From an uncultured bacterium (lineage in GTDB: Bacteria; Omnitrophota; Omnitrophia; Omnitrophales; Aquincolibacteriaceae), in the NCBI GenBank assembly GCA_964385615.1, contig CAYLPP010000007.1, positions 44,426-108,425 on the forward strand: DNA of 64,000 bases, written 5' to 3'. This document shows positions 6,892 to 61,700 of the stretch, piece by piece. The notes under the pieces are model-generated. The model made no database searches. It saw nothing but the letters and a program-made list of their open reading frames with translations, and was not told the DNA's origin. Within the stretch, counting starts at the first letter, position 1. The number at the start of each line of letters is the position of its first letter. A program made the position numbers and the translations under genes.

Positions 6892-6935
6892 GGGGGTGAA
6901 TTATAGCAAAAAAGCGGGGGCCGGCCTACCCTTAA

Positions 6936-10902: not shown

Positions 10903-11507
10903 GCGGCCTTTTTTATCATTTCGCTCAGACGGGCTTCAAAACGCCTGATAAAATCAATGAGTTGAGAATCCTTATAATCTTTTTCAAAGCAAGTATCCGC
11001 CCCCGCCGCCAGCATTCGCTCCACAGTCTCGCGCCCATACGCGGTCATTCCGATAATGGCAGTCGATTTAAATTTAGGATTAGACCGGATTTTCCGGCAA
11101 ATCTCTTCCCCGCTGATCCCCGGAAGACGCACATCCAGAAAAATAATATGAGGATTAAATTCATCGATTAAAAAACCAGCTGAGAAACCATCTCCGGCTT
11201 CGCGAATCTGAGATTGAGGGAAATGGCGCTGAAGTGTTACAAGCAGGATTTGACGCAGGTCAAAATCATCTTCCACGATCAGGATTTTTAAAAACGGGGC
11301 GGACGGCGCTGAGCTTTCTGTAAGTTCCGCGGATACCGGCATTCCCATTTTTTCCAACGCGAGTTTCAAATCTGAAACCGCGACACGGCTGTGCCCGCCC
11401 ATAGTCGCTGAAGCCTTAATCAGGCCGTCACGGATCCACCGCAAAATCGTTCCTCTGGAAACCTGGCAAATAACAGCCGCCTCTGAGGTCGTTAGGTAGT
11501 TTTTCAT
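10899..11507 (-). CDS. Response regulator with N-terminal excisionase/MerR-type HTH and C-terminal receiver domain
   Basis: 202 aa. N-terminus LTTSEAAVICQVSRGTILRWIRDGLIKA… (HTH_17-like). Receiver KILIVEDDFDLRQ…IIFLDVRLPGISGEEI…GMTAYG with conserved Asp. Confidence 0.7.
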   Translation of the reverse strand: MKNYLTTSEAAVICQVSRGTILRWIRDGLIKASATMGGHSRVAVSDLKLALEKMGMPVSAELTESSAPSAPFLKILIVEDDFDLRQILLVTLQRHFPQSQIREAGDGFSAGFLIDEFNPHIIFLDVRLPGISGEEICRKIRSNPKFKSTAIIGMTAYGRETVERMLAAGADTCFEKDYKDSQLIDFIRRFEARLSEMIKKAA

Positions 11508-19591: not shown

Positions 19592-19749
19592 AGAATCGCC
19601 GTCCACAGCCCTTTATTAAAGGCTTTTATAAAGGTGACTCTAGAAGTATAGCACCCTCTATAGGAATTTTCTAATGACAGGTAGGGCTGTGGAAGGAATG
19701 CTAGTTCTTACTAGAGAATGCTACTTTCCCCTAGGGAGCAATACCAGGC
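19592..19749. promoter_or_regulatory. Palindrome-rich, AT-richer spacer between the two giant genes (candidate promoter/RNA structure)
   Basis: An 11-bp perfect inverted repeat, tccacagccct (19602-19612) / agggctgtgga (19683-19693). Smaller palindromes tatag-N6-ctata (19647-19663), ctagt-N4-actag (19701-19714) and ccctaggg (19729-19736). On the coding strand, TAGAAA-N17-TATACT precedes the RBS region. No U-tract after the giant-gene stop. Confidence 0.3.
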
Positions 19750-37700: not shown

Positions 37701-40700
37701 CAAGCGCTTCAAAACCTTCCCGCACGCCCGCGCCCGCGCGCAGTAATTTAAAAATGTCGTCAGCCTTCACGCCCTGAGCTTCCAGCGTGAAGCGCACTTT
37801 CATGGCGGCTAAACGTTCGGCGGCGTTCAGGTATAAGGCGGCAGGCGTATCTCCGTGAGCGCCAAGAACATCCATGAGGAAGAAAATATCGTAATTCTCA
37901 GCCAAATATTTGGCGACCTGCTCCTGATGATCCAAAGTAGCCGTTTTACGCCGGCCATACTCTGTTTTAACCAGTGAAGAAGGAATCAATTCAAAAACGC
38001 CGGGCTTCGTTTCGACCCAGATCATTTCATGGCCGTCCACGTTTTCACGCGTTCCTTCCGTCAAAGCCTCCTCTAAGGTTTCCGTTGAGCTCTCTAAGAC
38101 AGCCGTTTCTTCCGCGGCCCGGTTCGAACGTGATCTCCAGGACTGGAGTTCAGAAAGAGCCGAAGCTTCATGTCCGGTGGGCGGAGGCAGATTCGCGAGA
38201 TCCGCTTCGCTCATGGAATTCAGACGGTCCAGAGCCGCGCGGTAACGGGCGGCGAACTTTTCATTTTCAGCCCGTGTTTTCTCAGGATTCTGCTGACGGC
38301 GGGCCCGTTCACGGCTGATATCTTCCTTACGGACCTCAATATTTTCTCCGAAATATTTACGGTTAACACCGTCCCGGTCTTTCTGAGAACGCGATTCTTT
38401 TTCCAGGCGGTCCAATTTCCCTTCACTCTGAGTCTCAAGGAAACGGCGGACGCGTTCACGGCGGATCGCTTCACGCGACACCAGCATTCTCTCACCCCGT
38501 GAATTACGCACCCAGACATAACCGTTCGGACCGTCGTGAGCGGGATGAGAATCGATCCGGGTCAGCTCTCCGTGCGACAACTCACCAAGGAATTCTCCCT
38601 GAAGCCGTTCCAATTCCGCTCTCGCGGCTTCTGGAGAAATTTCATAACCTTCAGAAGTCACGTTCTTAGGCCCATCCTTAGTACCGTCGGCAGGTTTCTC
38701 GTTGGCAATCCGGTGAAGTTCAACAAGCCCCGCGTCGCCCCGTTCGGAGGTCCGCCGGGCGGCATCCGCTTCTTTGGCTTTGCGCGCTTCTCTCGCAAGA
38801 TCCTTGGACACGTCAGGATGCTTTCCGCCCTGTTCAATTTCTGAAAGTTCCCGATGCGTCAGGTCCAGAGCGCTCCGGCCTTCGGGACGGCGGGCAATTT
38901 CATCACGGATAGCCTGACGCTGTGCCGGATCCGTCGTTTTATTCAGCAGTTCGAAAAGTTCCGTGGTGTTACGTCCGGCCAGCGCGGCATGCTCATCCGA
39001 AACTTCCGGCGATTCCTTAAATTCCTTGCCGGGCTCAACATTCGCTTCCGCTTCACTGACCGCTTTCTTGGCCATTTGCTTCGGATTCATGTGCTGAGGA
39101 AGCATCATGAAAAGTAAATCCTGCGCGAGCATATGCATCTGCTCTTCACTCAGGTGGGTCCAGCCGATCATGTTCGTAAAGCGCAGAATCGGCATCGTCA
39201 GATTTTCACTCAGTATCGGCATCAATTCCATCACCGCCCATGAAGAGCTCAGGAAATAAGCGGGATTCGTCAGCGGGTTAAGCGCGTGGGCGAGAATATG
39301 GTTATTTCTCATGAACCGGGCAACCGTTGACGGCCGGAGACCGAAGATGCTGAGGAAACTGGTAATACCCACCTCAGAAAAGACCTGAGCGCGTCTCTGC
39401 GTCGCGCCGGCAACGATATTTTCAATCCACTTGGCCGGACCCGCAAGCAGATCCTTAATCAAGCTTTCACCCGTGCTCCCCACTTTTTGCATTCCCGTGT
39501 TTCCGAAGACCGCGAGCGCCGGGCCCATGCGCACGCCCATCCAGAAAGCGCCGACTACGCCTTCACCGGCTTCTTCATCCAATTTTTCATCGCCGTGTTC
39601 AGCCCGCTGTTCACGCATGGACAAATGCGATTTGGAGCCGAACCAGAATGAGCGTTTGAAAGGACTTTCGCCTTTGATCAGGATGCGCATCGCGATATCA
39701 AACTGCGCCCACTGAAGACCGGTAACAATCCCCTTCTCTCCAAAAACCAGCGTGATGTTCCAAAGCTTGGCAAAAAATCCTTTGTACTGACTGCCGAACA
39801 TAAACCGGTGAACCCACAATTCCGCGTCTTTCGCCGCTTCGCGGGACACGAACACCTGAGCGTTTTTAGCGATATTCGAAAAATCCATCCATTTTCCGAA
39901 TCCCTTGGATGGATCCTTGTTAATCAGCGCGAATGCCTTGGTCAGGAAAAGCCTCATCACACCGACACCGAGGATAATCAGACCGAAATAGAAGAACATA
40001 CTGGCCATCGTGCCTTCTTTACTGCTCTTGTATCCGCCCAACAGGTACCCGGTAAGAGTCGCGCCCGCGCCGACACCCAAAATGATGGAGGTCAAAGTAA
40101 CTGAGGCGATCTGGCTCTGAACTTCAGCCTGAAGAGCTCCTTCAATCGGTTTGGGGAACGCGCGGGCCAGAGCCGTATGTATCAAAACCATAATCGCAGC
40201 GGCAATCAGCACGCCAAGCACTGTCGCCGCGATATCACGCATCGCGTCATTGCCTGTGTAACCCGCGTAAAGATAAACACCGAACGCAGTGCCGAGCGCG
40301 AAACTCGATCCAAGAATCTTCACAGCTTGCCCCGTGCGAAGCATGATACCGCCCGCCATGAAACGAAGGGCGATGCTCAGGCCAAAAGCCAGCATCAACC
40401 CAGCGCCCGCGGCTTTTAAGAATTCATTGCCCGTCTTATCGCCATACCAGTAAAGAGCGGTAGAAACCGCGAACCCGCCGGTCAAATACATCATCAGGCG
40501 GAAATTTTGGAGCATGAATTTCTTCGCGCTTTCACGCACGGTTGATAAAACATAGTTCTTAAAGAACGATGACGCGAGACGGCTAAAGATAACCACGCCG
40601 ATAATAACCCCAATCACGACCGCCGTAGCTTCAAGAACACCCCGGACCTGCTCAAAGACCTCCGCGGTAATTCCAAACACATCCAGGATGACACTTTTCA

Positions 40701-43700
40701 CGGCGGCTCCGACAACGCTTGCAATCGATGAAACCAGGGTTATAAAATTCGAAACCGCGGTCACGACTGTCTGCACAATCGGCGCGATAAAGGCCTTATA
40801 CACCTCAACCACGACCCGGCCAACGATATAAGCGGCGACCGCCACTACAGTCACTGCGGCAAGCGCGTAACCCGCCAGTGAAACCAGTGAAACGATTTTG
40901 CTGATCAAAGTCTTAGCATGCCAATTGGCGAAACCAAGACCGGTCAAAAAGTTGGAAGAAGCCGCGAGACGGTTCATCAAATTTCCGAAAGAACCTTTCA
41001 GGAAATTCCGGTATTGAATGCGCCAGAAAGCGGCGGTATGCAGAAGCGAGCGCTGAACCGCTTTCGGCAGGAAAACCCAGACGCCGGCCAGCGGTGAAAG
41101 CACAACCTGGCCTACCCCATAAACCAGCTGAACCGCGCCGAGCGCGATCGAACGCGCCACCCCGGCAAACCCTGTCCCCAGGCCGACTACAATGTTCCGG
41201 ATGCCGGTCGCGAAAATTTGAGCGCCGGTCGCATTGGCGCCCGCGTGGAAAAGAAGTTTACCGACGGCGGAAGTTCCAACCCCCCTGACCATAACTCCTG
41301 TGAAAGCCGCTCTCAGAATAAACGCGGACCCGATAATCAGGAACGCGGCCAGCCCGATGCCTTTAAGGATGTCACTATCCAGGAGATGACCGATAACGGC
41401 CACCGCGAGCGCGGCCGTAAGACTCGCCGCCCAGGCGTTTCGGACAAGGAAAGCTCCAACGTGGTAAACCGCGAAAACAGGCGCCGTCACCAGCACAGCG
41501 AAAACGCGTCCAATCACGCTCTTGGGCACCCATCCGCCGAACAGGAGTTTCATAAAACCATTTTGAGCGGCGAATTTTTGAAGCGGCAAAATAACATTTT
41601 TGAAAATCCAGGTGCCAATAACTTTCAAGACCGCCAGGGCGCGGGTACCGAGGGCGACCATGGCCGGAATGATTCTGGGGCCCAGGATCACCAACGCGAC
41701 CGTGATAAAAATCTGAGTTAACCCGACAAGCAGGGGCGGTACCAAAACCGCGGTCATGGCAATAAAGGAGCTGATCCGGAAAACACTGCCGAGAATCGAA
41801 GTAAACGCGGCGGTCGGCGCCCATCCTGTGAAAAAGATGGCCATATAGCTCTTCAGCAGGTCCTTAACTCCCACTGGGAACGTCGTGGTAAACACTTCAA
41901 CCGCGAACGCGGCAATCACGCGCGCCGCCCCAACAATCGCCCGGATAACAAAAGGCGCCGCGACAACCAAAAGGACGGCAACCGCGACCGCGGCTAAAAC
42001 GGCAACCGCGACCCCCACGGTTCCGGCAATCGCGAAGAAGACACCGACCGAGACTGCCGTGATTACACTTATCGTCGCGACAAAGGCGGTCACGATTAAA
42101 ATCTGTGTCACCAAACCGTGCGCCGCGAAACCCGTAAAGAACGTGTTAAAGAACTTAAGTGCCGTATTTTTAAAGAACGTGGCAATTTTCGTTACGGCAA
42201 AAATAGCGGCGTTCAGCAGCTGCATTCCGCCGTTAGCCGCCATAAGAGCAAGACCGGCGATCACCTGCCCGAAACCGTAGAAAATTTGCACAAGAGCCAT
42301 TCCGACACTCTTGACGCTGCCCCAGATCGCCGTTTGGAAGACAGCCTTGAAAACCGTAACGACTCCCCTTACCGCCATCGCCGCCATGGCAGTGATGGCC
42401 GCGGGAATTTTAACGAAAATAAACCGGAGAGCCGCGCCGACGTTAAACATGACAATCGACGTGGCTGAAAGCATGGCCAGGAAGAGGCCGTCCACAAACG
42501 CCGAGGCTTTATCCTTTTCATTTCCAGTCGCCAGACTGAACCCGCTTCCAAAAATCTCAAAAGGCACCAGAAGAATTCCACCGACCATCTGAACGCCCAT
42601 GACCACGTATTTACCAATGGAGGTTTCCGCGATGCTCGAGAGAAGGCCTTTCAGGCCTGTCACTTCGAGAACCACGATAAGCGCCGCTACAAACAACCTG
42701 GCGATCCCTGACACAAGATTTTTAACGAAACGGCCGAAGGCATTATCGAGGACCGATTCATAAAGCATGCCGGTCACAAAACCCGCGGTATAAAGAATCG
42801 TTCCTATAATGGCCGCCTTGGCCACAAAAGTCAGCTGAGCCACAATAATCGCGCTGGCCAACTGCGCCGCGGTCAAACTCGCCACAGCACCCGTCGCGCC
42901 GGAAGCCGCGCCCGCGGCAGCAGCACTGCCGCCGCCGCCCAAACCACCGCCCGCCGTTAACTGCGCCGCCGCCGCAATAATACCGATCGCCATGACGGCA
43001 ACACCAATCGCCTTGATCGTATCGCTGCCCACCGCGTAACCAATTCCGACAATCGCCAAACCCACCAGGACAAAAAACGCGGCGCCGGCTAACACAGCGG
43101 CCGTCACGCTAGTCGTCGCGATTCCCAACCCCGCGAGAATCGCCGTTCCGACACCCGCGGTGAAAACCGTAATCGCGATCACAAGCGCGATCACTAAAAC
43201 AACCGCCGCGACCTTCGCGATCACCGGCAAACTGCTCCACCATGTTTTGAAGTCGGTCACGATAATCTGAGCGACGCTCGTCTTGGAGTATTGGCTCATC
43301 TGCATGACACCGCGCGCATCCGCCGTGAAACCTTTCGACTCCAGCTCCGTACTGGCGCCAAAAATCCACTTAGAAACAAAACGGTCTTCCGACTTGCTCT
43401 TGACGGTACCGTCGGCTTTGTAAGTCCAGGTCATACGGGTTTCGTCGCTGGGCTTGCCGATGCGGATATCAATCAGGCGGCCGAATTTATCCACCTGAAT
43501 ATAGGTGCGGTCCGTTTCATCCTGCTTGTACTGATTGATTTTCATGGCATCAACCAGATTTCCGTCTTTATCAAACGTAAACGAGTGCGTCTGGCCCGGC
43601 ATCCGTTTAACGTCAGCCATGTCAATTTCCCCATGACCGCGGACCGTGAATCTCCTGACCGTGCCGGGCCGGTTCAAATAAAATTCAATACTGCTGAAAC

Positions 43701-46700
43701 GCTTGCCGATCTGAGAATCAGAATTAAACAGAGCCACATACGACATAACAGGCACATGATCACCATTCGGCAGACGGTCATACTGACTCTGAAACTTCAC
43801 AAGCATGGTGGCGCCCATTTTCCGCTCTTCTTCATTGGCCGGAGTGTGCAAAGGCACCATTTCAACCGCGTCTTGTTCAGAAAAGCTGACTTTGGCTTTG
43901 GATCCGTCAAACACATACTGTTCACCCAGATGGTTGTTGAACAGAACCGGCTTTTCGACCTTATGCATCTGGTCGTCTTTGGCCAGCCAGTATTCAAAGT
44001 GAATCAATTTATTATTTTTATCGCGGATGGTGTTCCTCATGGTTTTTTCATCCCAGCTGACACCGATAAACGAGGTGTGATAAGTTTCTCTAGATGAAAC
44101 GGAACCATCCACATGGTAGACATTTTCTTTGTAAATCTTGGACGTTTCGTCGCGCGCTCCACGGGTGTAGGTAAGATCACCCTTGCCGGTCATGGCGAAA
44201 TACTGATCACCAACCTTATAGAAGACGGAATTTTCAATATCTACTTTGTTGTGAGCGTCTTGAGCCGACTCCATATAACTGCGCGCTCTCGAAAAACCAA
44301 CCGTGTCGTCACCAAAGGCGAAATAGGCCGTGGGAGAAATGACAGCCAGCAGAATATTTTTAGCGGTCGAATTCGTTCTTTCTTTATCGATATCCTTAAG
44401 CTTCGTGCCTTCGATTACTTTTCCGTCTTTATCCACAACCTTCTGGACGCCGCCGCCGTGCATACTGACATAAATCGCGCCATCCTTATTTCCGCCTTCA
44501 GGAAGCCTGCGGATGACTCTTCCCTTGTCATAATCACGTGTGTCGGCCGTGTAAACTCGTTTATCCCCATCACCCGTATACCGGGTGATGACCCGGCCTG
44601 AAGAATCGAGCGCGATCGTTTCGCCGTTTACTTTAATTTTCTGGGAGGTAAAGACCCCATTATCGCCGGCTTCGATTTTCGCGTTGCTGTCCGTCAAAGC
44701 CGTCCAGAAAGTCATGTCTTTAGGACCGCCTCTGTTAAAGTGCGACTCCCCATCGTCTTCCGGTTTTTCAATTTTGGCGCAGAAGCCCGTGCACCGGCCG
44801 ATCACAAAGTTTCCGCTCAAATCGCTGACAATATATTCACCTGAGGTCGAAGGAATCCCCTGATTTTCACCCGCCCAGATCATGCGGTTGTTTGCATAAT
44901 CCCTGATATGGGTGGCCCAACCGCCGGCAAGAGGCTGACGGAAATTTCCATTGAAGAAACTCTGCATATTCGCTTCCGTGAACCGCGGGTTTACGGCTTG
45001 GCGCCAGGCAGCGACAAACCGGCCATTGTGGAAATACCCGGTCAGTACAGATCCGTCTGACATCACGCTTGCGAAATTTGTAATCTGATTCGAGGCGCCG
45101 CCCAGGAAATTTTTATTCGCCGCGTCGAAGTAAACAATGTTCCCATTATTTCCCAACTGGCCCAAGTACTTCCCGCTGATCATGGATTTCACATAAAACC
45201 CGCTGACCATGATGGAACTTCCGCCATCCGTGCGGTCCTGACCTGTCTGATAAATCCGGGAATTCGCGTGATCATTAACATCCATGGAATACTGCACTCT
45301 GCCGTTCTTATCGGTAAACCAGGAAGTGATCAGGTCGTAGCCTTCTTTTGAATTCCCATTAAGCTTAATGCTGTGCTTAACCCCTTTTTCATCCGTCAAT
45401 TCAATGAAAGCATTGCCTTTTACCCATAAGGAGTTACTCTCACCCGCGGACGGCAGTTTAAAGACTCCATCTTCACGGTATCCCGTAATCTTGTGCGTAT
45501 CCTGATCTTCGATCAGGTATTTGTTTCCCGCAACCTGGGAACCGCCTTGATCATTTCGAAAACTATCCATGACCCGGTAAATCTGGCGAGTCTCATGGTT
45601 AACAACATTCAAGGCGTACCTGGTCCCAAGCCCTTGCTCAGGAGATTCAAAAATGCGGGCCGTCACGATAAATCCGGCTTCGTTGACCATCACATCCACG
45701 GCCTGACCGCTTCCGGTGTGGGTATAGGCCGCGTAAGGATGACTGACTCCTTCACTTGAAGCATGACGTCCGCCGACGTGCTGGAGCGGAGCAATCGGTT
45801 TACCCCACCCCTGATTAACACCAATCACCCGGCCGCCGTTCAATTCCGCGACCAAAGCTTCCCGCAGTTTGCCGCTGCCGACCCCAGAAGCTGAAAGGTA
45901 AACACGGCCGGAAGAATAATCCGTCAGGTTGGTCAGCATCACACCGTCGCGGGAATACCCCATCAAATCTCCGCTGGAGGTCAGGTACATTTTGTACTTG
46001 CCCTTATCGGTTTCATCCGTGCTGGTGAACTCGATAGTATGCCCAATCATTAACAGTTCGGGCAGACCGTCAAGCTCTGAATACCCCCCGCGGAATTTGT
46101 CACTATTCAATGAAGTGTAAGTCTCATCGCCCGGAAGACGGATTCCCGTAATTTTTCCCGTGTAAAGATCGCGGACAACCACTTGTTTCGCGAACCTCGC
46201 GACTCCGCCGTTATTTTGATGCGCGGGAAGTTTCTGATGGATATCGTAAATAACCCCATTCGTGTAGTCCGTCGCGCCCATAATGGGCACCACACCTCTA
46301 TCATTCTTATCTTCTTTTCCGTAAGCACCGACCAAACGGTTATCATCGTCAAAGTAGAAAATGGCCGTTCCCGCGGCAGAAGCGCCTTTAACCGTCATGC
46401 CGGTTACAGCCTTATCGGTCCCAATGGCACCCGGGACTTGATTCCCCTGAGCATCCAGTAAGTACCGCATGGTGAAGTTCGAGATCGGGTTCTTCGGATC
46501 CGAATTACTGGCGCTGAAGGAATAAAAGACACCGTCTTTAATCACACCTTCGTACTGGAAGCTGTCGCCGATACGTACCGGGCGGATCCCTTCAATCTGC
46601 TTGCCGTCCGGGGTAATCATCATGTAGACCCGGCCGGTTTTATAGTCGGTCATGTTTGAGAGGAATGTGGTTGAGCGGTCACGGCCCTGGAGCATTTCAC

Positions 46701-49700
46701 CCATGACATAGCCGTTTTCATCCAGATACGTCGTCACATACCGTCCGCTGTCGCCGTCTCTTCCGCGTTCCCGACTGACATAAAAGGAACTTGCCGTCAG
46801 ACCATTCGCGCCGGGAATCTGCGCGTACTGCGCGTTGGTGCCGGTAAACAGCCGAAGCGCCGCGAAGCCGTCCGTTTGATTCCAGGTACCGATCATCCGG
46901 CCAGGATCCGTCATATCGGCAACACCGACATTCCAGCCGGTCATCCCTCCGCGCTGACCGAACATCAGAATTCTTTGGTTCGCGTTGTCATAGACATTGC
47001 CCAGAATTACTTTATTTTCCGTCTGAGCGTCACGGGTCATGACAAACCGGCCCGCTTCATCAAAGTAAAGAAGGCGGTCATTGACTTTGTCTCCGAAAGG
47101 CTTGTCCGTCTGGTAATAACTCATGGCGCTCATTTCATATTCGGTGCTCACACCGCCGGCGTCAGGATGGGGCGTTGGACCGGTATGACGGGCGCCATCC
47201 ATATAGAACCTCCCGCGTTCATCTAATTTTTCCCGCAGAGGGTTAAGCAATCTCTGGCCGGCAGGATCCACGTAGTTAAAAACCGTGTTTGTATCGTAGC
47301 TGAAAATTTTCCGGACACTGTCATTACGCTTATAGTCGCCTTCACCGACAACCAAAAGCCGGTTTTGATTGTCTAAAATCAAATACTCAGAGCCGGGAGT
47401 TCCCCCAATGCCGTCGTGAACCAGTTCCAGGAAAGTAACACCCGTATAGCCGTGGCGCCCGCGAAGCATAGGCTGAAGCATGTCATTAATGACTGGGCAA
47501 AGTTTGTCGTCACCGAAACGCTTGTCAAGAGCCAGAGGAACACGGGCTCCGTAAATATCATCACGGTAAACTCCCTCACTGCGGCGAACTCTGACGCCGG
47601 CCTGAAGCGCGATTCCGGTAATCTCACCAGTCACCATACTCTTCACCTGGATCGCGAAACCGTTGGTATCTCCATAAGGCTGATACAAGGTCTTGGTCGT
47701 ATAGTTGGCACCGTAGGTAATCTTGGCGTTTTTAATGACTGCGGCGAGAGCCTTGGCATCACCCTTCGCGGCGGTAAACCCGGCCGTAAACGCTTTCCCG
47801 GCCAGAGAGACCCGGTTCTGCTTATCAAGCGTGATGAACTCCGTCTCACCCTTGCCGCCCGGAATCACACGGCGGAACGATCTCACGCTTTCAACAACGA
47901 CGGCAGGATGGTTCTTATCTTTTGATTTGCGTTCGGCCTCCTTCGAATCCACTTTCTCTTCAACCAGTTTCGCGCCGGTATACGCGTCAACCGCCGTCAC
48001 AAAATCACCGGAAGACAATTCGAATTGAAGCAAAATGCCCTGCGAACCCTGCGCCAGCGACCACTGCTTATTCGCGCTGATATTCAGGGCCCAAGTAATC
48101 TTGTTGTTTGGTTTGGCCGCGAAGAAATTCTGACTCGTCCCGGCCAGCACCTGGCGGTTGAGCGCGTCCAGACCGATAAATTGGCCTTCATATTCATAAA
48201 TGGTGGCCGGACCCACGAAAACTTCCCCTGAAGACGGATTGGCGGAAAAGCGTCCGGTCACTTTTTTACCGAGTTCGTTATAAACATCCGTAAAAGAACC
48301 GGTGGAAATCTTGGAAGAAATGAACAGTTTGTCAGCGTTTTGGGCCGCGGACCACTGCTGATCCGTCTTGTAATTGGCCGCGTAAGAGACTCTCAAAGAG
48401 GTTTTAAAATCACCGGTACCCCGAAGCACGACACGGTCTTCGGCATCCAGCGCGATGAATTCATTTTCCAGAGTCGACGGATTTTTACGGATGAAAACAA
48501 TCCGGCTTTCCGTTTTAATATCTCCGCGTTTGATATCTTTCGCGGTATCATCCGTTACGGTTCTATCGGGCGCTTTGCCGGTATGCGCGTCGAGCATATT
48601 CACGCGCAGACCCGAGTCCATGTTCGTTATCTTCATAAATCCGCCGATCGCGGACCCGGAAATTCTCTTTTCATAATCCGCGAAATACGTCAGGCTGAAA
48701 GCCGGTAATTCCTGCTTCTTCAAATCACCGTTACCAATCGCGAGCACCCGGAACTTTGTATCCAGGACCAAAAACTCTCCGGTCTCAATATCATCGCCGA
48801 CCGGGATTCTCCGGACGGTCTGAACCGTTTCATCTTTTTTACCCAGCTCCATGTCGCCGACCTTCAGATTCTGATCGGTTCCAATAGTCAGGCTCGTTCC
48901 GCGCTGAGCATCGTAGACGCCGAAGCGCAAGCCGGTGTCCATATGACTCATCATCAGGAAACCGCTGCTCTGAATCCGGTTCCATTCGACACCCGTTTCG
49001 AAATTGGCGGCAAAATCAATAAAGAAGTTCTTCGTTCCGGGCCGGAGATAATCCCCCTGACCTGACAGCACGGTGCGGTTCTGCGCGTCCAGGGCCACGA
49101 ACTCGCTGGTTCCGTCAAGACCGACACGGGCGTAAACCGCGGTGCTCTTGGTTGAAATCCCGTTGGTTCCGAAAGAAATATTCTGTTCAGCCTTGTCCGT
49201 CTTGGGCTTAATTTCCGTTCCGCGCTGAGCGTCATACATACCCTTGAATTCCCCGGTCGAATTCGTCACCGCGCGCAGAATTCCGCGTTTGTCACGTGAC
49301 CACATCATGTTAACCATCGGGTCAAAGTTGACCGCGAAGGTGATCATCGCGTTGACATCCGTGCCCAGCTTCGTCCAATCCCCGTTACCGCTCATGACGA
49401 CTTCATTATTCGCGTCCAGCGCGATGAAGGTCTGAGACCCGTCATGACCTTTAGTCACATACACAACGGAGGATTTGGTTTTAATGTCTCCCTTGCTGAC
49501 ATTTTTAGTCGAAGCATTATCAATCTTTTCAAGTTCACTGCCGGTGCGGGAGCTGAAGATTCCTTTAAATTCACCGGTCTGCATGGAAACGGCTTTCAGG
49601 AAACCATCCGCCGCCGCGCTCCAGGTCATTTTCGTCGCGTAGTTGGCCGCGTAAGTAATATTAAACATGGGAGCCGTGGGCTTCGTAAAATCACCCGTTC

Positions 49701-52700
49701 CCGTCAGGCTTACGCGAAGTTCACCGTCAAGCATCAGGAATTCAGAAGGCGAAGCGTCTTTACCGGAGGTTTTAACGTACACGCGCCGGCTTTCAGTCGT
49801 CACCGTGCTTGCCGCTTTGGGATCACGCTTTTTATTCAGCGCGTCAATTTCAGCCTTTGTCATATCCCGGCCGGCGATGACATTTCCAGTATTGGAATCA
49901 CGGACTTCATCCAGACGTTCACCTGAAGAAATAACGCTGGTTACCAGGAAGCTGGCGGATCCGGCGGCCCGGGACCAGACACGGTCACGTTCATAGTCCG
50001 CGGCGAAGCTGATAAGGAGGCTTGACCCCTGGACATTCGAGCTCCCCCAAAGATCACGGTAATTGCCCGTTCCCAGCAGGACGACGCGATTCTCAAGATC
50101 AAGAGCCAGGAACTGGGAACGTCCACCCGACAGAGGGGTACGGGAGTAAAAATTCTCAGCGGCAATTTCATTATCTTTCCCGGTGCCCAGCTTGATTTTT
50201 CCCGCAGTCGGAGATCTTTGAGGCTTGATTTCATCGCCCGTTTGACCGTCAAAAACACCCACAAACGCGTTGGCCGAAATTTTCTGCCCCAGCATGAAGC
50301 CTTCTCCAGCGTTGGACCACCGCATATCAACCGCGGCATTGTAGTTGGCAACCAGACTCAGCTGGCGGAGCAGAGGTTCTTTAAAGTTTCCGTTACCGGC
50401 CAGGACCAGACGGTTTTCCGCGTCAAACGCGATAAATTCCATCTTGTGGCCTTCAGGAGAAAGCCGGGTGTAAACAGCCACGCTCTCCGTTTTCATCTGG
50501 CCAATCTTGATATTTTTCGCGGCGTCAGTTGTATCCGCTTTGAGTTCAGCCCCGGAATGAGCGTCATAAACGCCGAATTTCTCGCCCGTCGCGGTACTGC
50601 TCATCCGCATAAACCCGCGGCTGACCAGTGTCAGCTGGCGCTCAAGCGTATAGTTCGCGGCAAAAGTTAATTCAAACATGGCGGAGCTCGGATGGAGGAA
50701 ATCACCGCGCCCGGCGAGAACAATGCGGTCTTCCCCGTCAAGGGCCACAAAGTTGGTCTGCTTTGAATCAGGATGCTCGATCACATAAAACTTCTTGGAT
50801 TCCGTTTGAAAATCGCCGACCTTCATATTATTGACACCGCCGGCGTGCGCCGCGACTTCCTTACCGGTATAAGGATTAAAAACACCTTTAAACGCGCCGG
50901 TGTCCATATGAGTTGAATAAAGCGCGCCGTTACGGTTCACCCATATCTGACGAACCGCCGGGTCATAATTCGCGGCATACATAATCTGGAGGACGGTGCC
51001 CTTACGGCCGTTCTTGCTCATATCGCCCAGAACATAAAGAGACTCACGGCCTTCAGAATCAAAGAAAACGTTTTCCAGTTTCCCTTCACGGTTCTTAACG
51101 GTCCAGCCTGATTTTGACTGAGTCTTCACGCCTTCAATATTGGCGTAAGCGGTCACGTCAGCATCCGTCAGTTTCTTTCCGGTGATTCCCTTCTGGTTCA
51201 ATACGGCAACCAGTGTATTGTCGGAAAGTTTGCGCACAATCAGGGCTTCACCCGTGCGGCTGGCGGTCCAGCTTCGGTCCTGCTCAAAATTAACCGCGTG
51301 CATAATCGTAATGTCAGCAGGATGGCTGATAATATCGCCGGAAGCGACCAGCGTAATCCGGCCTTGGTCGTCATACAGATAGCTTTCACTCGGTCCGTCA
51401 TGAGAGCTGACCACGGCCGCGTGAGTCGCGTTGACGGTAACCGCCCCGCGGTTATAACCGCGGATATCCTGAACTTTGATACGGACATTTTTGGAGGGAC
51501 TGACAAACCCAAGCAGGTCGCCGGTAAAAATACTGCGTTTAATCAGCGCTTCTCCGCCCTCACGCTGATAAATAAAGCCGTTCGCGCTATCCATCGCGTA
51601 GAAGACCTTCTCCATTTTCCCGGAGCTGGTGACCGCGCAAAGTTTCAGGTTGGCGTCAAAATGAACCACAACCTCACCTTCTATTTTTCCGTCCACAAGC
51701 GTTTTGACTTTCCGGCTGTAAACAGACTTAATCGTATCCGTTCCCTGATTGCTGTTAAATTTAATGGCCTGATTGTTCGCGGCCAATGCTTCGAGATCGC
51801 CGGCACCGTCCCAGAAGCCGATCAAATCACCGCCCATGGTCATAACCGGGAAATGGCCGTCCACAATTTGACCGCCGCCTTGGACAAGAACACCAAAAAC
51901 CACATTGTTCTTGCGGTCAATAATGTTGGAGTAATACTTCAGGGTCGGACCCATTTTTTCTTTGGATGAAGTCGTGACATGCTGGCCGTCATCCGTCAGG
52001 TGGATAATCCGGGGACCATCCGGCATTTCGAGCTGAATGTAGGCGCTGGTGCTGACTCCGGTTGACTCATGCACCGTGGGAACAGCTGAAATTGAAACAC
52101 CGGTCTTAACACCCTTCGAACTGATACTTCCAAGCATACGCCCGGTGTCCATGCTGGAATAAGCCGCCGGTCCTTTCAAATCTTTGAAAGAAACCCCCTG
52201 CAGGGTCGTGTGAATAATCGTCCGGTCTCTGAAATTAAAAATATCCAATGAATAAGCTTTCGCGGGATCGGACATATTTCTGGCCGTCGCGACACGGCAG
52301 CCGAATGAGCAGTCCAGGAAAACGGTGTGGTTCTGTCCTCCGTCGGTCTGAACCCCTTCAAGAATCGCGTCCGTTTTGACGCCGCCGAAATGCGTGGCAG
52401 AAAACGTGGTGACGCTCTGAAGACCTTCAAAAGCATTCCATTTCCCAATGATGACACCGCGTTCCGTATCCTCAACCAGGACATTGTTCGAAACCCCGCC
52501 GAACATGGTCATCATGTAACGGCGATGATTGGTATGATCCATCAGATCAATCACGTGGTGAAGAACCGGCTGACCGTCCTTGCGGACCTGCCCCGTATTA
52601 AAGGTGCCGCCGACCAAACGGCCCATGCTATCAAGATAAATCGTGATCGGTTTTCCCGCGCCTTCCTTGCCGATAACGCCCTCAATGACCATCGCGCTTG

Positions 52701-55700
52701 AGAACGCGCTTCCGGTTCCCGAAAGCCACTGCACCTGTTTAACCTTGGCGGCAACAATCTTACTGCCGTCCCACGAACCGAGAATACGCTGTGTCCGGAT
52801 ATCCATCACCGGAACATTGGCTTCCAAACCGCCGGCCAGTGTCACCATGTAGCTGATGCCCTTCGTGTGATCCGTAATATCCGTGATGAATTGAACGTTT
52901 TTAGTGCCGTCGGCTTTAAACTGGAATTTTTCTCCAAAAACCAGTTCCGCTCCGACAAAACGGCTCATGGAATCAAAATGCATGGTCACCGCTCCGCGGT
53001 TGCGGTCAACAACCTGCAGTTCTCCGGCAGCAGCCACGGAAATATCGTTCATCTTCACGGTGTGAAGGGTTTTCTGGATCGCCACCATCTTCCCGTTCTG
53101 CATCACTCCAAGCATATTTCCGGAAGCGATTGAACGGATAAAATAAGAGCCCGCCGCAAGACTGACTCCTTCCGACTGGGTGTGGAAAGACATCATCCGC
53201 GCGTGATCAAAAATAGTGGAGTCCCGGCCAATATGGGTGCTGACCAGCGGGTGATTGCTTCCCATATTCAGGTAGATCGCGACTTCCTTGCCCCCTTCAG
53301 GACCGGAACCGACGCTGGTGCCGGAAAGAACCGTATTATAGGAAAGAGTGGATCCTCCGTCCGGAGTCGTTTCGGTACCGGTTCCGCTCATGAACTGGAA
53401 ATTTTCACCGATCCGGATATCAAAAATGTGCGTGAATCCAGCCGTCAGCATTTGGGTGCCGTTCATCTTCGTCACGTCAGTATTTTGACGGGCATGGCCC
53501 ACGGCGGCAGCGTAACTGTTAACCGTTAATTCCAAACCTTCGGAGTCGGTAAATTTAAAAACCGGCGGACGGCCTTGCCCATAAATCGCCGTGGCTTTCG
53601 ACGTAATGGGGATTTCGGTCATCTTCCCGTTAAGCATTCCCTTTATCGAACCTTGATAGTAAACACGCTCCACGGTTTTCGTTTTGGTTTTTTCATTGTA
53701 AGAAATAAAGCTCGTGCTCTTGTCTCTGTGAGTGATCGCGACACGCAAAACTTTTCCGGCGGCATTCAAATACACCACACGGTTACGGCGGTTTGTATCC
53801 ACACGAACGACCGTCGGAGAGAGGTTGTGCTCAACGGAAAGCGTCTGATAGTTCACATTCGCGAGACTGACTGTCGTACGCCGGCTGAAATACTGGGTAT
53901 ACATGGAAGTGGAGATATAAACGCCGGTACCGACGATACCTTCCGTTGACAGGCTGACAACCCCCCACTTATCAAAGAAGGTCCAGGAAACACGTACGGC
54001 CGATTCCGGGAAAAGCTGCCCTATCTGACCGACGACACCGCCGAAAGCAAACCCTTTAACATCAAGCTTCGGATTCGCGGGAAGCTTCAGCCCCGTACTC
54101 AATGTGCCTAACCCGATAATTTTTCCAACCAATTTCATCAGAGTGGTGGAGATAAGACCAAAGTTCACACCGCCCATCAACGCGTTATAAAGCTTGGAAA
54201 CAATTGTTCCGGTTCCGGGCCCTCCGCCGGTAAGCGGATTCATGTTTTTTGAAGCCAGGTACTGCTGGACACCATAAATCAGCTGAACGGCGGAATGCTT
54301 TCCTCCGGTAGTCAGATCCGCGAAAAATCCGCGCATCAGCCCTGTCAGCGCGGCCGCGTCATTAATGGTCAGAGAATCCTGGCCCATGAACATCACCGCG
54401 CCGATCACGGAGGCCGAAATCGCTTCGCTGTTTCCGGTTTTGAAAATATCAAGCAGAGGCGCGAACAATTCAGGACGGCTTTCAACCTGCTTGCCAAAAG
54501 CCTCGACACGGTTAATAAGAACCCCGAAATCGAGCTGGGAGAATTTAAAAATCTGAACCCGGACATTGTGCGGAGTCGCGAAGAAATTACGGATAAAATT
54601 AACCGTCGTGGCTGAGACTGTCGGATTCAGGCTGTTGAGTTTCGGTGAAGATCCGGCGAGATCTACAGCTTCCAGAAACAGCTGTCTTACATCATTAAGA
54701 TTCAGATCCAGGCCTTCGGCCAGAGTCTTGGGAAGGTTCGGGTTTTTCTGGATCAGGATCGGATAAATGAAAGCGATCGTCGCTCCGCGCAAACGCTGGG
54801 TCGCCGCCGCGTCCAAACCGCCCGACTTAGTCGCTACTTCTAAAAGCGAGCCGAGAATCGCGGCCTGATCCGCTGAGGTCAATTTGTCAAATTTATCAGG
54901 ATTTTCAAAAATAGCGTTAATAACATTCGTCGCGAGCTCGGCATTGCCCACCAGATTCAGATTTTTGAGTATCTGAGGCGCGACCGCGAACCGGTCTTCC
55001 ACACCCAGCGCGAGAAACGCGTTCTTCGCTTCCCGAGAAAGCGAGCGGACAGCAGCCGCGACAACAAAAGCCGGTAAAGTGGGGTCATTCGCCTTCACTT
55101 TTCCAAGGAATTCAAGCAATTGCCCCGCCTGCTGAACCGCGACCTTGTTATCCCCCGCTTTGACCAGGTCTTCAACGACCGTCACACCTTTGCTTACGAG
55201 GTCTCTGCGCACATCCTGAGTCAGATTCGGAAGCTGAAGGTAGGCCGTAATCAAGTTCCCGTGCGTTTCAAGCGTGAGACCCGCCGGACGGACGGGCGCC
55301 AGCACGATATCCGTAATAATTTTGTGAAGTTTTTCAGTCTGAGCCGCGGCTCCGCCTCCCGCGCGCAGAACAAGAATCGCCGTCGCGGCTTTATCTCCGA
55401 GATCCGTAATACTGTCCACTGCCGCGGTCAGTTTTTCAATGATGGCTCTTTTAGCAACCGGATCGGTGAACTTCAAAAGCGCCAAACCGTTTTGCACAAA
55501 GGTTCTTCTTTCACCGTCATTGGCGAACGCGGGAGGATTAAGAATCTGCGCGGAAAGGAACTGAACCGCTTCAATACGCTGAGCGCCCGTAAGGAGATAA
55601 ACGGCGTCAATATTCTGGAAAAGTTCAGGAATCGTCAGCGTGCCTTCCCCCTTGAAAACAATCGCCAACCGGGCGGTCAGGGCCTGCTGCTGATCCTCGT

Positions 55701-58700
55701 TAAGATTCCGGACCAGCAATCGGGCGTTTTGAGCGATCGCTTTATCCACAAATCCAGTCTCGATCGCTTGTACAACCCGGTTCCCGATAAATTCCGTAAG
55801 ATCTTTGTCAATCGTTCCTCCGCCCGCGTTGAAAAACGCGATCGCGGCGTCAACCCGAAGCTGGGCTGTGGCGGCTTCAGGATTGGGTCCGCCGATCACA
55901 ATCAGGTTTGAAAACGCTTCTTTAATATCCGCGACCACGGCCGCCTTTAAATCGAGCAGATTAAAACGATTCGCGTAACGGGCGACCTGAGCTCCAATTT
56001 GAAAGTCCGTAGGCGTCACATTTCCCGTCGACAGGACTTTTGCCTGAACCAGCTTGCTAATTAAATTCCGGACAAAATCAGTATCATTTTTAGTATTTAA
56101 ACCTCCCAGCCCGACCGTAACGGCCACTTGAAGCTGGGTTTTCTTATCCAGGAAAGTCGAAAGGCCCTGATCCGCCGCCTTAAGGATATTGACAAGCAGG
56201 TTGTTGGCCTGTTTCTTGAGGTCTGAGTTGGTAAACGGACTTTGAACTTTTTGCGCCAGCAGAACCGTCAACGCCGCGCGCTGCTGGTCAAGCGTTCCGC
56301 CCGCTTCAAAAATCTTCTGAATATCTTTGTTATTTTCCGCCGCTTTCTTGATCAGATCCTGAAGTTCAGCCGCGGTAGGAGCTTTGATGCCCAAAGCTTT
56401 CAAAAGAGCCTGAATCGCGGGGTTGGCCGCGAAATCCCCCATGTTCAGCAGAGCGACCAATTCCAGCAGCTGCTTGGTTTCTTTATTGTGTTTCTCTTTC
56501 TCAATCGCGGCCTTGCGGGCTTCTTCCAGTTTCTTTTTATCTACCGGCTTGGCGTCCCGGCGCTTGATGCCGGATTTGTTCAGAGCCGCTTCTTCAGCCG
56601 CTTTCTTATCCGCCAACGCTTTCTGCTCGCGCTGAACTTCTTCAAACGTCCTGACCGTCCAGCGGGGCTTCTTGCCCATCATTTCATAAACCTGTTCCTG
56701 GCCGTAACGGGCGACATCAAAGAGAATCGACATCAGGTAAATCACGATCGCGGAATTACTTTCACCGGACGCCGGATCCACACTGCCAAGCTTGACTTTC
56801 AGCTGGGCCAGTTTAGTTTGATAACGCTGTTTCGCGTCTTTTAGACGGGTATCCCGGATATTGACCAGGTTGTTGGGGTCGTCAGGCGCCGGGCCTTCTT
56901 CCGGAGTAGGCGAAGCATTCGGGTTATTTTTGTCGTAATCGGTGTCAAGCGGGAACGAGTCCTTGTCTTCAGCCCAGCCGTCAGCCAATTCTTCAAGATC
57001 ATCACTAAGCGCTTCAGACAGATCGTGAACCCCTTCATGATAGGTGCGCCAAATGACATGCCAGTGTCCTTCGATCCAAACTTGACCTTCCGCGTCCCAG
57101 TGCCCATACATGTATTCAAAGTAAGCATTGTAATCGTCATTGCGCTGAGTGCAGGAACCGTCCAGAGGCTCATAGCACCCGCCTGAACCAATGAGAATAT
57201 ATTTTCCAAGAAGGGTGCTTTCATCCGCCCAGGCATCGGTACGGGCCGTGTGGTATATCTCAAGAATGTCATAGTAGAACTGAACTTTCGCGTCTACATA
57301 GGCGTTGGTATAGGTTTCCATCCGGCTGCGCAATTCTTTCGCGTTGAAGAGCGCGTTTTCGTAAATCCCAATGCGCATATCAAACTCAGCCGCGTGTTCA
57401 AAAAACATCCGGGACATCCGGGCCATGAATTCAGGAACATTGAAAGAAAGCATCGCGATATTGGCGAAAAACATCCGCTGAGCCTGAATATACCAACGGC
57501 CGGCAACTTTGGAAGCCGTGCGGAGCTTTTTATAAACATAGAGATCTTCACGGATATTGCCGATCCCGGGAACCGTGATCGACATAAAGTCGTCAAACAT
57601 GGCCTGCGCGCCGTTCGCGGTTGTACCGCCGAGAATATCGTCACGGATGTGCTTGTACTTCTCCATCCGGTCTTCATCAATCTTGTCGAGCATCTCGTAG
57701 AAGCCGTCACCGCCGTTCAAACTGGTGTTGAGGGCTTCAAAAACAGCGCTCACATGATCTCTGAAAAAGGTGATCTGGGATTCATAATAATCTTCGCGCC
57801 GAAGGTCAGTATCATCTTCAAGCTTGTGCGCAAGATCCGCTTCTTTCTTGGTGTGATAGTTCTCACGAGTCGGACGCGGACCAATCAGCGAGAAGCCGTT
57901 TGGCCAGACCCCAGCCCAAACCGAATGCCAGTTCAGCGTAATGCTGTGATTTTCACCCTGATCAACCACAACCCCATCCCTGGTATGAACCCAGCTGGTT
58001 CTCCAGGCATTTCCAATTTCCGCATTCCACCACTCATTGGTCCAGGTTTCAACATGGTGCGCGCCAGGATGATAAATAAATTGTCCGCCCGCGCCACCTT
58101 CCACGACCACAGGCCCCTCTGGTCCCGGCGGCATGGGGCCAGGATTGTCCGGAACCCATTCCCAGGTACCTTCTTCATCCCATTCGTTAGTCCAAGTATC
58201 CGTGTTATAAGTCGCAGCAGCACTGGGAATCGCGTCAATTTGCTGCTGATAAGAGTTATCGATCTGCTCATTAAGATTCTGTTCAATGTCATCAATATCT
58301 TCGGTAATCTTGGCTTTCATCAATTCATAATCACTGCCCTCGCCGACCTTACGTTCGTCTCCTTCCCAAAAAATCAGTTTAGAAACGTAGTCGTCACGGA
58401 TTGCTTTGAGTTCCATAATCAGATCATCTTTAATCCCGGGAATCACATTCTGGAAAAGATCATCAACCTCACTCACAATATCATCGTGATAACCCTGGAA
58501 ATTGCTTTCCGGGCCAAACTCAGCTCCCTCCCACGCCGCGCGGGAGGCATTGATAGCGTTATTGGCATCATTTTCGGCGTTCATAATATCCGTCGAAAAT
58601 TTGTTGTAAGCGTTGTTGATCCGTTCCCAATAACTATTCTGAAGCTCTAAATTGGTTTGATAGTCTTCCTGCTCCTGCTTGTAACGGTCCCATTCTTTTC

Positions 58701-61700
58701 CCCGGTCTGAAGAATAGGTCTTGGCAAGATCATGCGTGCTAAGAAGGTAGTCTTTGCGGGCTTTCACCAAATTGAAACGCTCTTCCGCGCCCAGATAATC
58801 GAGATTATTCGAGCCATTCGAGGCCATGCCGTCAACCCCTCGCTGCTCCGGCTGAATCACCGCGTATTCAGGAGGAACTCCCAGATACGGAGGGGTCATT
58901 CCCGCTTCACCATAACAGCCAGGTTCGTAGTAGGTGTAGCACCCGTAACCGCCGTAGGTGTTGTACCAATATCTCCAAGGCATCCAGGGAACTTCTCCGG
59001 GGCCGGGATTATTGTGTTCATAGGGGTAGTAGCCATAACCGTAAACATCAAACGGGTTATAGTAATAATAGTAGTTGTAACAGTAATAACCGCAATAACC
59101 GTAGTTGTAATACGGATCAGAAACACTGGCCGGCGTAATCTGGAAAACACCTTTGGCTCCGCCCCGGATATTCAAAATGTTTTTCATTTTGGTGGAAGCG
59201 GCATCCGTTGCGGTTTTCAGCTGTTTCTCGAGGTCAATTTTATTCGCGGCAAACGCCTGCGCTTTACGCTGAATCACGGAAGTCCAGACACCGTAGCAGC
59301 CGAATTCGTTCTGAGGACAATCCGTAGTGCCCGGGTCAAGAAGAGTCGCCATCAAATCGTCAAGTTCAGCCCGGTAATCATAAAGCCCATAGCTTTCAAT
59401 TCCGTCCGCGTTCACGTACCCGCCGCCGTCCATCATATTTTCAAACTCAGTCATTTGAGCTTCCATGAAATCGCCGATCCAAACTCCATAGGTGCCGTAA
59501 AAATCATCGTAGGGGCCGTAGATTTGCTTAATCCCTTTAAGATTGTGAGCTCCGATGGCGGCGGCAATATCAGCCTCCGCGGTAACATCCCCGTCGGTCG
59601 TGTCAAAAAGCATCGCCTGAATCGCGGCCCAGCGTTTGACCCGCTTTTCATAGTTGGCGTCAAGACCGCTTTCTTCCTGAACATTGACGCCGTATTCAAT
59701 CGTATTATTTTGAAGGTCGGTCAAAAGAGCCGATTGATACGTATAGAGTTTTTGTTTATCAAAACCAGCCTTAAGATCAGCGTGATTGCAGGCATAACCG
59801 CTGTTAGCCAGGCACGCGTTGAAAAGGATATACAACGCGCTGTTCCCGCCGAACAACCACCACCAATTTTGATAGCCGTCCGGGATCGCACGGTCATTTG
59901 TGTTTATAATTTTTACGGCCGCGTCAAGAATCTTGCGGGAGTAATCGATGCTGTTTTGATATTTACGGTCAATGACCGTCAACTTCAAAGCGATCAGACT
60001 GAAGCCGTGGGTGTAGTAAGCCTGGACTTCCTTCTCAATATCTTCCTGGTATTCATCATATTGAGTTCCCAAGGCGTCGATATAATCCTGGTGAATCTTT
60101 TCCAGGGTTTTGGTCACTTCCGCCGTATAGTTCCCCATGGTCGCCAGAGGAAGCGATAATCTCTTGTCCAGCAAGGTCGTCTGCGTTGCCACAGTATCCG
60201 CATAGACACTGTCATTTCGATTGATCCGGTCGGCTGAAAAGATATCATTCATCGCGGCCCCGAGACTGCTAAAACGGATCGCCATGTCCCATTCCTGCAC
60301 GTACACATACCCGCCGGCCGTCATGACAAGACCTTCCGCATTTTTCTGGTAATCGCAAATCTGGGCGGGGCCGCAGTTTCTATTGAACGGAGCTACGTTA
60401 AAAATCGGCTTATCAACATAATTAAGGAAAATATTACCGACAGATGATTTATAGTCGGAGAACGCAAAATCAAACCGGAACCAGAAATCATCGCTGGAGG
60501 ATTCCATATCAGACCGGTAATTAGGCATAAAACCGTCGATATCCCCCTTCAGCGCGGTCTCTGCCGCGGTCGCTGACGCGTTGTAAGCCGCTTCCGCCGC
60601 GACATAGTCGTTCCAGACGCCATCCATCCGGGCGAGAACATCATCCGGCGTATCCCCGACAGCCGGATCCGCGGGCGGATATTTCACGGTCGCGTCATAG
60701 TCCAGCGCTTCTGAGAAAACAAATTTCGCTTTTCCGATCCTGGAGTCAAAATCTGCGAAAGCAATCGTCTGAGACGCGAGATAAATCCGCCGCTCAACGC
60801 TCTTGTCTGTTTTGAGCGGGAAAGAGTGGTTTCTGTAAAAGTCATAATCGGAACGCGATCCCCGGTCATTGGCAATGATCGCCATCTGAGCGGCATACCC
60901 CTGGGTCATCGTCGCGGTATTCAGTTCAGCCGCGATTTTAGCGTAGTCGGTAATATGAGAAATCAGAGTCTTGAGATTTTTCTCCATCCGGTTGAAATAA
61001 TTGGCCGTGGATTCTTTTTTAACTTGACCGGCATTGTCAGGGTCCCAGTAGGCGACAACATTTCCACCTTGAATTTTAGGCTTGGGAATCTGCATGCTCT
61101 GCTGATTGATGTAAACCGCCGCGCCGTTGACTGATGTGAATTCCGGCACCAGCTTGTCCTTATCGACATATTCATAAAGTTTTGATTTAAGCTGCTGTCC
61201 AAGCGCGTTATTCTCGTCACCCTTACCGTAAGCCTCAAAAAGCTCTTCGAGCTTATCCTTCACGCTCAAAGCGCCGAAGGCGTTCGGCTTCGAAATATCA
61301 ACGTCCTTGTTGTACTGATCAACCGCGTCTTTAACGTCCTGCTTGTAGGTTGTATACGCCTGATCTTCGGCATTACCCGCGTTCAGAGCATTTTTATACT
61401 TGTCAGCCGCGGCTTTGACCGCGTTCACTAAGGTCGTCTTCGCCTGATTGATGGTGTTCGTATAAGCCGTCAGAACCGGATTCAAAGCGGCTAGAAGCGC
61501 GGCTTCAGAAATGCCCAGCTGATTGGTCAGGTTGGTGTAATTCGCATTGTCAGGCCAATAACCGCCGTTAAAGAGCGCGTCATCCACTTTATCCGCAGCC
61601 ATGTTCATAAAAGTCTTGTATCCGGTCAGCAGCTTGGGGCGAAGAGACAAACCCGGGGTTTCGTATTTATCCGTACCCGCGTCATCCCAGGTGAAATCAG

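Follow-up and report, generated by a model that had tools for sequence, protein, structure and literature searches.

Introduction

Giant proteins of the bacterial phylum Omnitrophota are typically anchored in the membrane, and where they lack annotation, long beta structures without interruption have been predicted with AlphaFold (bioRxiv 10.1101/2023.11.21.568195; bioRxiv 10.64898/2026.06.07.730766). Among such structures, West-Roberts et al. (2023) described AlphaFold-predicted hollow 'antiparallel beta-helix' tubules of ~1,500 amino acids (aa) in unannotated regions of Omnitrophota giants (bioRxiv 10.1101/2023.11.21.568195). Here we analyze a further protein of this class, encoded in a stretch of 64,000 nucleotides (nt) from an uncultured member of the Omnitrophota family Aquincolibacteriaceae (assembly GCA_964385615.1, contig CAYLPP010000007.1, positions 44,426 to 108,425 of the forward strand), the whole of which is referred to as the window. 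A giant open reading frame (ORF) on its minus strand encloses a tandem array of diverged, confidently predicted all-beta modules, which match no family in the profile libraries that we searched and which probably build the stiff stalk of a membrane protein.

The layout of this giant protein agrees with that of the published membrane-anchored Omnitrophota giants. The two classes of West-Roberts et al. are defined by HEAT, TPR, glycosyltransferase and dockerin domains, however, and Pfam finds none of these in the protein of the window. The protein also resembles the 'Pfam-dark' long proteins of Nielsen and Lui (2026; bioRxiv 10.64898/2026.06.07.730766), namely, in having at least 10,000 aa, transmembrane (TM) helices and no Pfam match above threshold, and in a tandem repeat that has been lost from the nucleotide sequence but is retained in the protein. 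Their catalogue, however, sorts repeats by Pfam family and does not describe the module of the window, for which Pfam has no model. Beta-repeat regions of great length and without annotation are already known from Omnitrophota giants, and what is new here is a module family within a known class of proteins.

Results

Thirteen diverged modules form the core of the array

Within the window, the giant ORF (19750..63987) amounts to 14,745 aa, but its frame remains open up to the window end, so that the protein must be longer and its N-terminus is not seen. Residue numbers (n) translate into window positions as 63987-3(n-1), and the coordinates of all features are collected in Table 1. An earlier note, made by eye from the letters of this DNA, had placed ~12 modules of ~330 nt at 47650-51350 (aa 4213-5446). 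The array is real, yet it holds 13 modules instead of 12, and it extends beyond that interval by about 250 nt at its start and about 320 nt at its end.

Three lines of evidence define these modules, hereafter type-A units. First, BLASTP of a single unit against the whole protein gave 10 further matches at aa 4272-5397, ~105-110 aa apart and with E values from 0.007 to 3e-19, and in an all-against-all window BLAST the array was essentially the sole BLAST-visible internal repeat of the 14.7-kaa protein. Second, once the units had been delimited with an iterated hidden Markov model (HMM), each scored 18-96 bits against a leave-one-out HMM of the other twelve; the maximum reached in 50 composition-preserving shuffles of the array was 4.2 bits. 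Third, the hairpin motif recurs at a spacing of 93-151 aa with a mean of 111 aa, or 333 nt, which is the period that had been read by eye.

Pairwise identity among the 13 units ranges from 13 to 43% (mean 27%), being highest in the central units and lowest in the terminal ones. Two positions of the unit alignment, G41 and D85, are invariant and another two, R89 and G94, nearly so; the motifs (F/Y)AANY...W(S/N) and EF(I/L)ALDxxNRVVLxGxGDF, as previously noted, are present in it. At the DNA level, no long-period (~330-nt) repeat was detected by Tandem Repeats Finder, which rules out a recent, collapse-prone DNA repeat, and together with the low identities sustains the proposal that the array is ancient and diverged. 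No other ORF of the window was found to carry the module, and four antisense ORFs of 150-223 aa across the array region, with no Pfam match, were taken as spurious.

More diverged units extend the array on both sides

With an HMM for a second type of unit, type B, 14 further units come to light on the two sides of the core, six of them at aa 3569-4192 and the other eight at aa 5639-6545. Both flanks share a beat of ~105 aa and one motif order, namely, a phi-x-phi-Y-L-D-xx-G-R-L-V-G hairpin, a phi-phi-D-I-x-D-xx-N-x-x-I-Y strand pair, and the segment V-x-D-x-x-T-G-x-I-L-G. When type B was aligned with re-phased type A by hhalign, 61 columns fell in register (P=3e-4, probability 39%), as compared with P=0.22 for a reversed-sequence control. 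In addition, the last type-B unit of the N-terminal flank (aa 4106-4229), which overlaps the first type-A unit, acts as a bridge that is known to both profiles, with leave-one-out scores of 13.6 bits for type B and 18.2 bits for type A; and at the other end the match of the type-A profile covers the whole of the final type-B unit (aa 6457-6545), at E=4e-5 in a single comparison. With moderate confidence, we consider that these profiles describe ~27 homologous units at aa 3569-6545 (window 44353-53283, about 3,000 aa), of which type A would be the conserved core.

The module matches no Pfam or NCBIfam family

Pfam searches gave nothing relevant, neither with the whole giant protein, whose only signal is a sub-threshold PDZ match, nor with 12 of the 13 units taken one by one at E<=5. 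NCBIfam had no match to the array and its flanks at E<=1, where TIGR02608, which we take to be the delta-60 model, was not checked for presence in the library searched. Thus, no confident match to a known family turned up in either library, as anticipated from the unfamiliar motifs. A sequence search of the PDB with the unit profile returned insignificant matches only (E>=0.59), mostly to aromatic amine dehydrogenase propellers, plus FlgT and one peptidase.

One resemblance is to the PF17164 (DUF5122) repeat, also called 'delta-60', although this model has no match on the giant protein at E<=0.01 nor on 12 of the 13 units at E<=5. The hairpin A(L/I)DxxGRIVxAG of DUF5122 is comparable to (F)IALDxxNRVVLxG of the array units, and hhalign against the unit profile gives 84-90% probability, over just 23-29 columns that span one hairpin only; antiparallel four-stranded meanders are common to both. 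However, DUF5122 membership implies a period of about 55-62 aa with one blade per repeat, and the spacing in the DUF5122 matched proteins is 54-65 aa, whereas the array has a period of 111 aa with two meanders per unit, and its models do not superpose on closed propellers. We read this resemblance as one of motif and not of family membership. Similarly, the xFxGVxDxxTG segment of the array resembles the 'vyvlDaatGk' type of blade hairpin of WD40, PQQ and BamB propellers, from which the array differs in showing no sequence-level match.

A unit of ~110 aa, laid out in tandem and with low pairwise identity between copies, is also typical of adhesin stalk domains, and differences in copy number between homologues, as reported below, would fit them too. 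The modules could then be independent beta-sandwich or beta-barrel domains, arranged as beads in the manner of Big, cadherin or other fibrillar adhesins, each binding a ligand on the host surface. Yet the Pfam profiles for Ig-like (Big), cadherin, PKD and other adhesin domains, as well as those for FG-GAP and VCBS, did not match the protein or the 12 units searched. The check for calcium-binding motifs that the earlier note suggested also came back empty, as neither GGxGxD nor DxDxDG occurs in the array, which rules out a Ca-binding or RTX reading and leaves the beads devoid of Ca-binding linker motifs. The array contains one Cys.

Confident all-beta models with propeller-like meanders

AlphaFold2 models of consecutive units, as had been proposed, were obtained for two and for four units with high confidence (Table 1). 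Both are all-beta and show seven long strands in each unit, to which short bridges are added in the two-unit model; in unit 7 the long strands correspond to YAAN, MTWSAAA, FLKAVS, FKGIFS, VVYVTK, QTFIAL and VVMSGN. Strands 1-4 and strands 5-7 are each joined internally by turns of 2-5 residues; after strand 4 there is a variable excursion of ~28 residues with two tiny hairpins; and a linker of ~12 residues with a helical turn leads from one unit to the next.

Foldseek searches of the PDB with both models, and of BFVD with the two-unit model, align them to propellers only (WD40, ODA16, BamB, PQQ dehydrogenases and the designed 8-bladed Tako8), with E values down to 3.5e-8 and probabilities of 0.9-1.0. 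The likeness is a local one: in the four-unit model, every one of the eight meanders shares the structure alphabet of WD40, PQQ and BamB propellers (E to 3.5e-8, probability 1.0), and these eight meanders pair one-to-one with the blades of an 8-bladed propeller without superposing on it. Ring closure, in contrast, is a property of those propellers and not of the array models (TMq, the TM-score relative to the query, 0.11-0.22; root-mean-square deviation, rmsd, 12-23 Å). Over all propeller matches TMq was just 0.11-0.24 at the same range of rmsd, the multi-unit models have no global match among the top PDB matches, and, as judged from Foldseek scores and not from coordinates, no closed ring was recognized against propellers of 4 to 8 blades. 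Strong E values with TMq of at most 0.24 point to two blade-like meanders per unit that are not set in a closed ring, and it is in this restricted sense, blades but not closed propellers, that the earlier suggestion of a beta-rich and possibly propeller-like module stands.

Accordingly, we consider it unlikely that the array folds into one or several closed propellers, for example of 8 blades from 4 units, serving as platforms for the binding of ligands or proteins, with the open arrangement being an artefact of truncation and shallow alignments. All structural neighbors are propellers, at a Foldseek probability of about 1.0, the hairpin motif fits DUF5122 propeller repeats, and STGxFxGVxDxxTG weakly matches PQQ-like and aromatic amine dehydrogenase propellers, all of which would be expected from such a fold. 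Nevertheless, the four-unit model, despite a predicted TM-score (pTM) of 0.80, compares with Tako8 and BamB at TMq of only 0.13-0.16 and rmsd of 18-19 Å; propeller Pfam models have no match even at E<=5; the linkers that join the units are all alike, and no domain boundary recurs at intervals of 3-4 units; and 27 consecutive units offer no obvious blade count with which to close a ring.

The high pTM over several units further suggests that the packing between units is rigid, which argues against flexible beads on a string. With pTM of 0.80-0.89 over four and two units, indicative of a fixed inter-unit geometry, and no sandwich or barrel domain in the top 50 of any Foldseek search, we regard the independent adhesin domains introduced above as very unlikely. 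Furthermore, both faces are apolar in the conserved EFIALD, NRVVL and FAANY strands, and judging from the sequence, the sheets are probably sandwiched between neighboring sheets, as in a stack.

A rare family with variable copy number

The search of protein sets with a unit HMM, which the earlier note had also recommended, was done exhaustively over 1.84 billion protein cluster representatives. It returned 11 proteins at E<=1e-3, of which four are true relatives, with 3-4 units each and 14 units in total. Among the other matches, which are weak, three DUF5122/SBBP beta-propeller repeat proteins were hit at the ALDxxNRVVLxG hairpin only, and one PQQ_2/SGL propeller protein at the STGxFxGVxDxxTG segment. 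No relatives were obtained in a word-indexed homologue search with the unit profile, in scans of genome-contig and metagenome-contig collections with the array profile, or in a metagenome scan with an alignment of the conserved region close to the TM segments. The family is therefore very rare and without a curated model, and, by sequence, it is not widespread among Omnitrophota giants.

All four relatives are incomplete or divided. P0003 (locus L075) is a fragment of 1,036 aa, truncated where its 3.7-kb contig, from the Omnitrophota metagenome-assembled genome (MAG) ELA295, ends. P0002 and P0005 (L076 and L077) are fragments of 6,026 and 6,210 aa, whose contigs start inside the module array (L076:2-700 and L077:6-740), which suggests that the assembly broke in the repeat. 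P0001 (L078) lies within a giant gene on a 45-kb contig, beside a 7,815-aa ORF. At L078:12950-12975, the module ORF stops at 12961 and the 7,815-aa ORF begins at 12969 in another frame, and the last ~100 residues of the first ORF resemble out-of-frame sequence; the split is probably a frameshift or an assembly error that divides one giant gene.

Outside the module, no BLAST-level similarity between the relatives and the giant protein was found except at the L078 locus, whose downstream ORF is collinear with aa 8002-11037 of the giant protein at 27-44% identity. This region, taken to aa 11100, is the sole part of the protein that clearly resembles another locus. Neither Pfam nor a word-indexed protein search, the latter with a conserved C-terminal segment, gave a match for it.

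Copy number differs among these proteins, with 13 type-A units in the window and 4 in L078, a homologue with 33-44% identity in the C-terminal region. Moreover, adjacent units are 82% identical in L076 and 70% in L077, which shows recent amplification in these two lineages, unlike the window. Taken together, the 13 versus 4 units and the 82%-identical pair of L076 show that copy number shifts over evolutionary time, and that amplification is ongoing in some lineages.

Comparison with the described tubules

The rarity of the module bears on a further alternative, namely, that the sequence underlying the ~1,500-aa tubules of West-Roberts et al. is that of this array, which would then form a hollow tubular protrusion or conduit in place of a solid stalk. 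The phylum, the giant host protein and the lack of annotation are common to both, as is an AlphaFold2 prediction of antiparallel beta structure that runs without a break for about 1,500 aa; the type-A core measures 1,425 aa, and its modelled segments of two and four units are continuously antiparallel beta, with short helical turns at regular intervals, in blade-like sheets that fail to close as a small ring. For its tubules, the preprint describes a hollow lumen and, on the outside, alpha-helices or beta-sheets in pairs, and it is with these published descriptions that the array was compared. The type-A core may be an instance of such a tubule. On the other hand, with four relatives in 1.84 billion representatives the module is not one that Omnitrophota giants commonly share by sequence, and strands with two apolar faces suggest stacked sheets and not a single-layer wall. 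Pfam likewise did not recognize a shell of the RHS/YD-repeat type, and chains of RHS, Tc or teneurin proteins were absent from the top 50 Foldseek matches of both PDB searches. On balance, we see the tubule as possible but doubtful.

Position of the array in the giant protein and genomic context

The array lies ahead of a polytopic hydrophobic block, which begins 370 aa past the array end; a hydropathy scan gave no TM-like segments in aa 1-6900. Composition changes across this block, from low Glu, more Asp and Asn, and almost no Cys ahead of it, to high Glu, Ala and Leu beyond it. The plus strand shows a spike in AT skew (+0.27 at 40-42 kb and +0.13 at 42-44 kb), which probably stems from the TM block, because hydrophobic residues are encoded by codons rich in U on the coding strand. 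Deep within the Glu-, Ala- and Leu-rich C-terminal half, TM-like segments form a second cluster, and the distal N-terminal region includes a PDZ-like match and a poly-glycine run.

Table 1. Features of the window and coordinates of the module array.
Feature	Window position	Strand	Residues (aa)	Remarks
Giant ORF	19750..64000	minus		at least 14,749 codons; right end open
N-terminal flank, type-B modules	51601..53283	minus	3569-4129	more diverged, same period
Core array, 13 type-A modules	47326..51600	minus	4130-5554	modules of ~97-136 aa; iterated HMM; unit starts at aa 4130, 4230, 4337, 4442, 4546, 4661, 4779, 4884, 4992, 5101, 5202, 5299, 5425
C-terminal flank, eight type-B modules	44353..47076	minus	5639-6545	
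Two-unit AlphaFold2 model	49018..49656	minus	4778-4990	12-row alignment; predicted local distance difference test (pLDDT) 95.2, pTM 0.89
Four-unit AlphaFold2 model	48388..49656	minus	4778-5200	6-row alignment; pLDDT 85.7, pTM 0.80
Polytopic hydrophobic block	39922..43245	minus	6915-8022	roughly 20 TM-like segments; Kyte-Doolittle scan
PDZ-like match (PDZ_6)	63118-63282	minus	236-290	25.1 bits versus a cutoff of 27, sub-threshold
Poly-glycine run (GNGGGGGGGG...)	~62780-62815	minus	~392-400	
Region similar to L078	30688-39984	minus	8002-11100	
Second cluster of TM-like segments	27472-28476	minus	11838-12172	
2,656-aa ORF	11636-19606	minus		directly downstream of the giant gene; no Pfam match
Two-component cluster	6936-11507	minus		CHASE-PAS hybrid histidine kinase, Hpt protein and HTH_17 response regulator; downstream of both large genes

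The N-terminal ~480 aa of the 2,656-aa ORF, and only these, are weakly similar (23-33% identity) to the Omnitrophota MAG loci L015 and L040. Further genes downstream of the giant ORF on the same strand encode MiaB, a YjeF_N protein, a sulfotransferase, a beta-barrel porin and a Wza-like exporter; this MiaB is closest to proteins from Omnitrophota MAGs, at no more than 66% identity. In the scans of the contig collections, MiaB alone returned loci, which place the source among the Omnitrophota, as a bacterium absent from the GTDB species representatives searched. PilZ genes, which have been reported downstream of most Omnitrophota giant genes (bioRxiv 10.1101/2023.11.21.568195), were not seen downstream of the giant gene in the window. 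A phage origin found no support, as there was no match in a phage collection and the neighbors are bacterial housekeeping and signalling genes.

Alternatively, the array could stay in the cytoplasm as an intracellular scaffold, with the chain being threaded outward only later by the TM block. The visible part of the protein, its N-terminus being beyond the window, shows no signal peptide or N-terminal TM segment, and predictions for long Omnitrophota proteins give TM segments only, with no signal peptide, in about 46% of cases (bioRxiv 10.64898/2026.06.07.730766). Still, the Asp- and Asn-rich, low-Glu and nearly Cys-free composition of aa 1-6900 sets this part against the cytoplasmic-looking C-terminal half, and in the preprint of West-Roberts et al. 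high-confidence repeat structure is placed in the extracellular segment, with the tubules as protrusions (bioRxiv 10.1101/2023.11.21.568195). A cytoplasmic array thus seems improbable to us, and we favor an extracytoplasmic location.

Discussion

The reading that we prefer, with a probability only a little above one half (about 0.55), is that the array consists of ~105-111-aa all-beta modules of an undescribed family, which form the stiff stalk or scaffold of a membrane protein. Each module would contribute seven long beta-strands, connected by tight turns and arranged as two blade-like antiparallel meanders; successive modules would pack rigidly against each other to give one continuous beta-rich body that does not close as a propeller. 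Such a body would amount to a stiff, interlocked shaft of tunable and evolvable length, which would hold the distal N-terminal region of ~3,500 aa away from the polytopic membrane anchor. Any binding, including a putative role in adhesion, would most likely occur at the long and variable strand-4/5 loops. The geometry would be that of an open rod or superhelix.

Several points weigh against this stalk. First, the alignments behind the two models are shallow, with 6 and 12 rows made up largely of paralogous units. Second, the N-terminus, with any signal peptide, lies beyond the window, so that an extracytoplasmic placement of the array is tentative. Third, no conserved binding or catalytic site speaks for any specific function, and there are no close orthologues with which selection on the array could be tested.

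More tentatively, the stalk may be given a defined shape and role. The ~27-unit array could be made of propeller-type blades stacked on a screw axis, yielding an open beta-blade superhelix, possibly a hollow tubule, which would serve as the extracellular shaft of a membrane-anchored giant apparatus by which Omnitrophota nanobacteria contact host or prey cells.

The giants of Omnitrophota rank with the largest proteins known and consist mostly of unannotated sequence, for part of which the array provides a well-defined and confidently predicted module. This module could seed a new domain family, starting from the 27 units found here and the 14 units of its four relatives. If the open geometry proves false, the region would be just another diverged beta-repeat scaffold in a surface protein. 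If the open stack of blades is true, however, it would represent a new way to build long rigid beta structures from propeller-like blades, and it would offer a concrete element with which to test how nanobacteria reach across the envelope to other cells.

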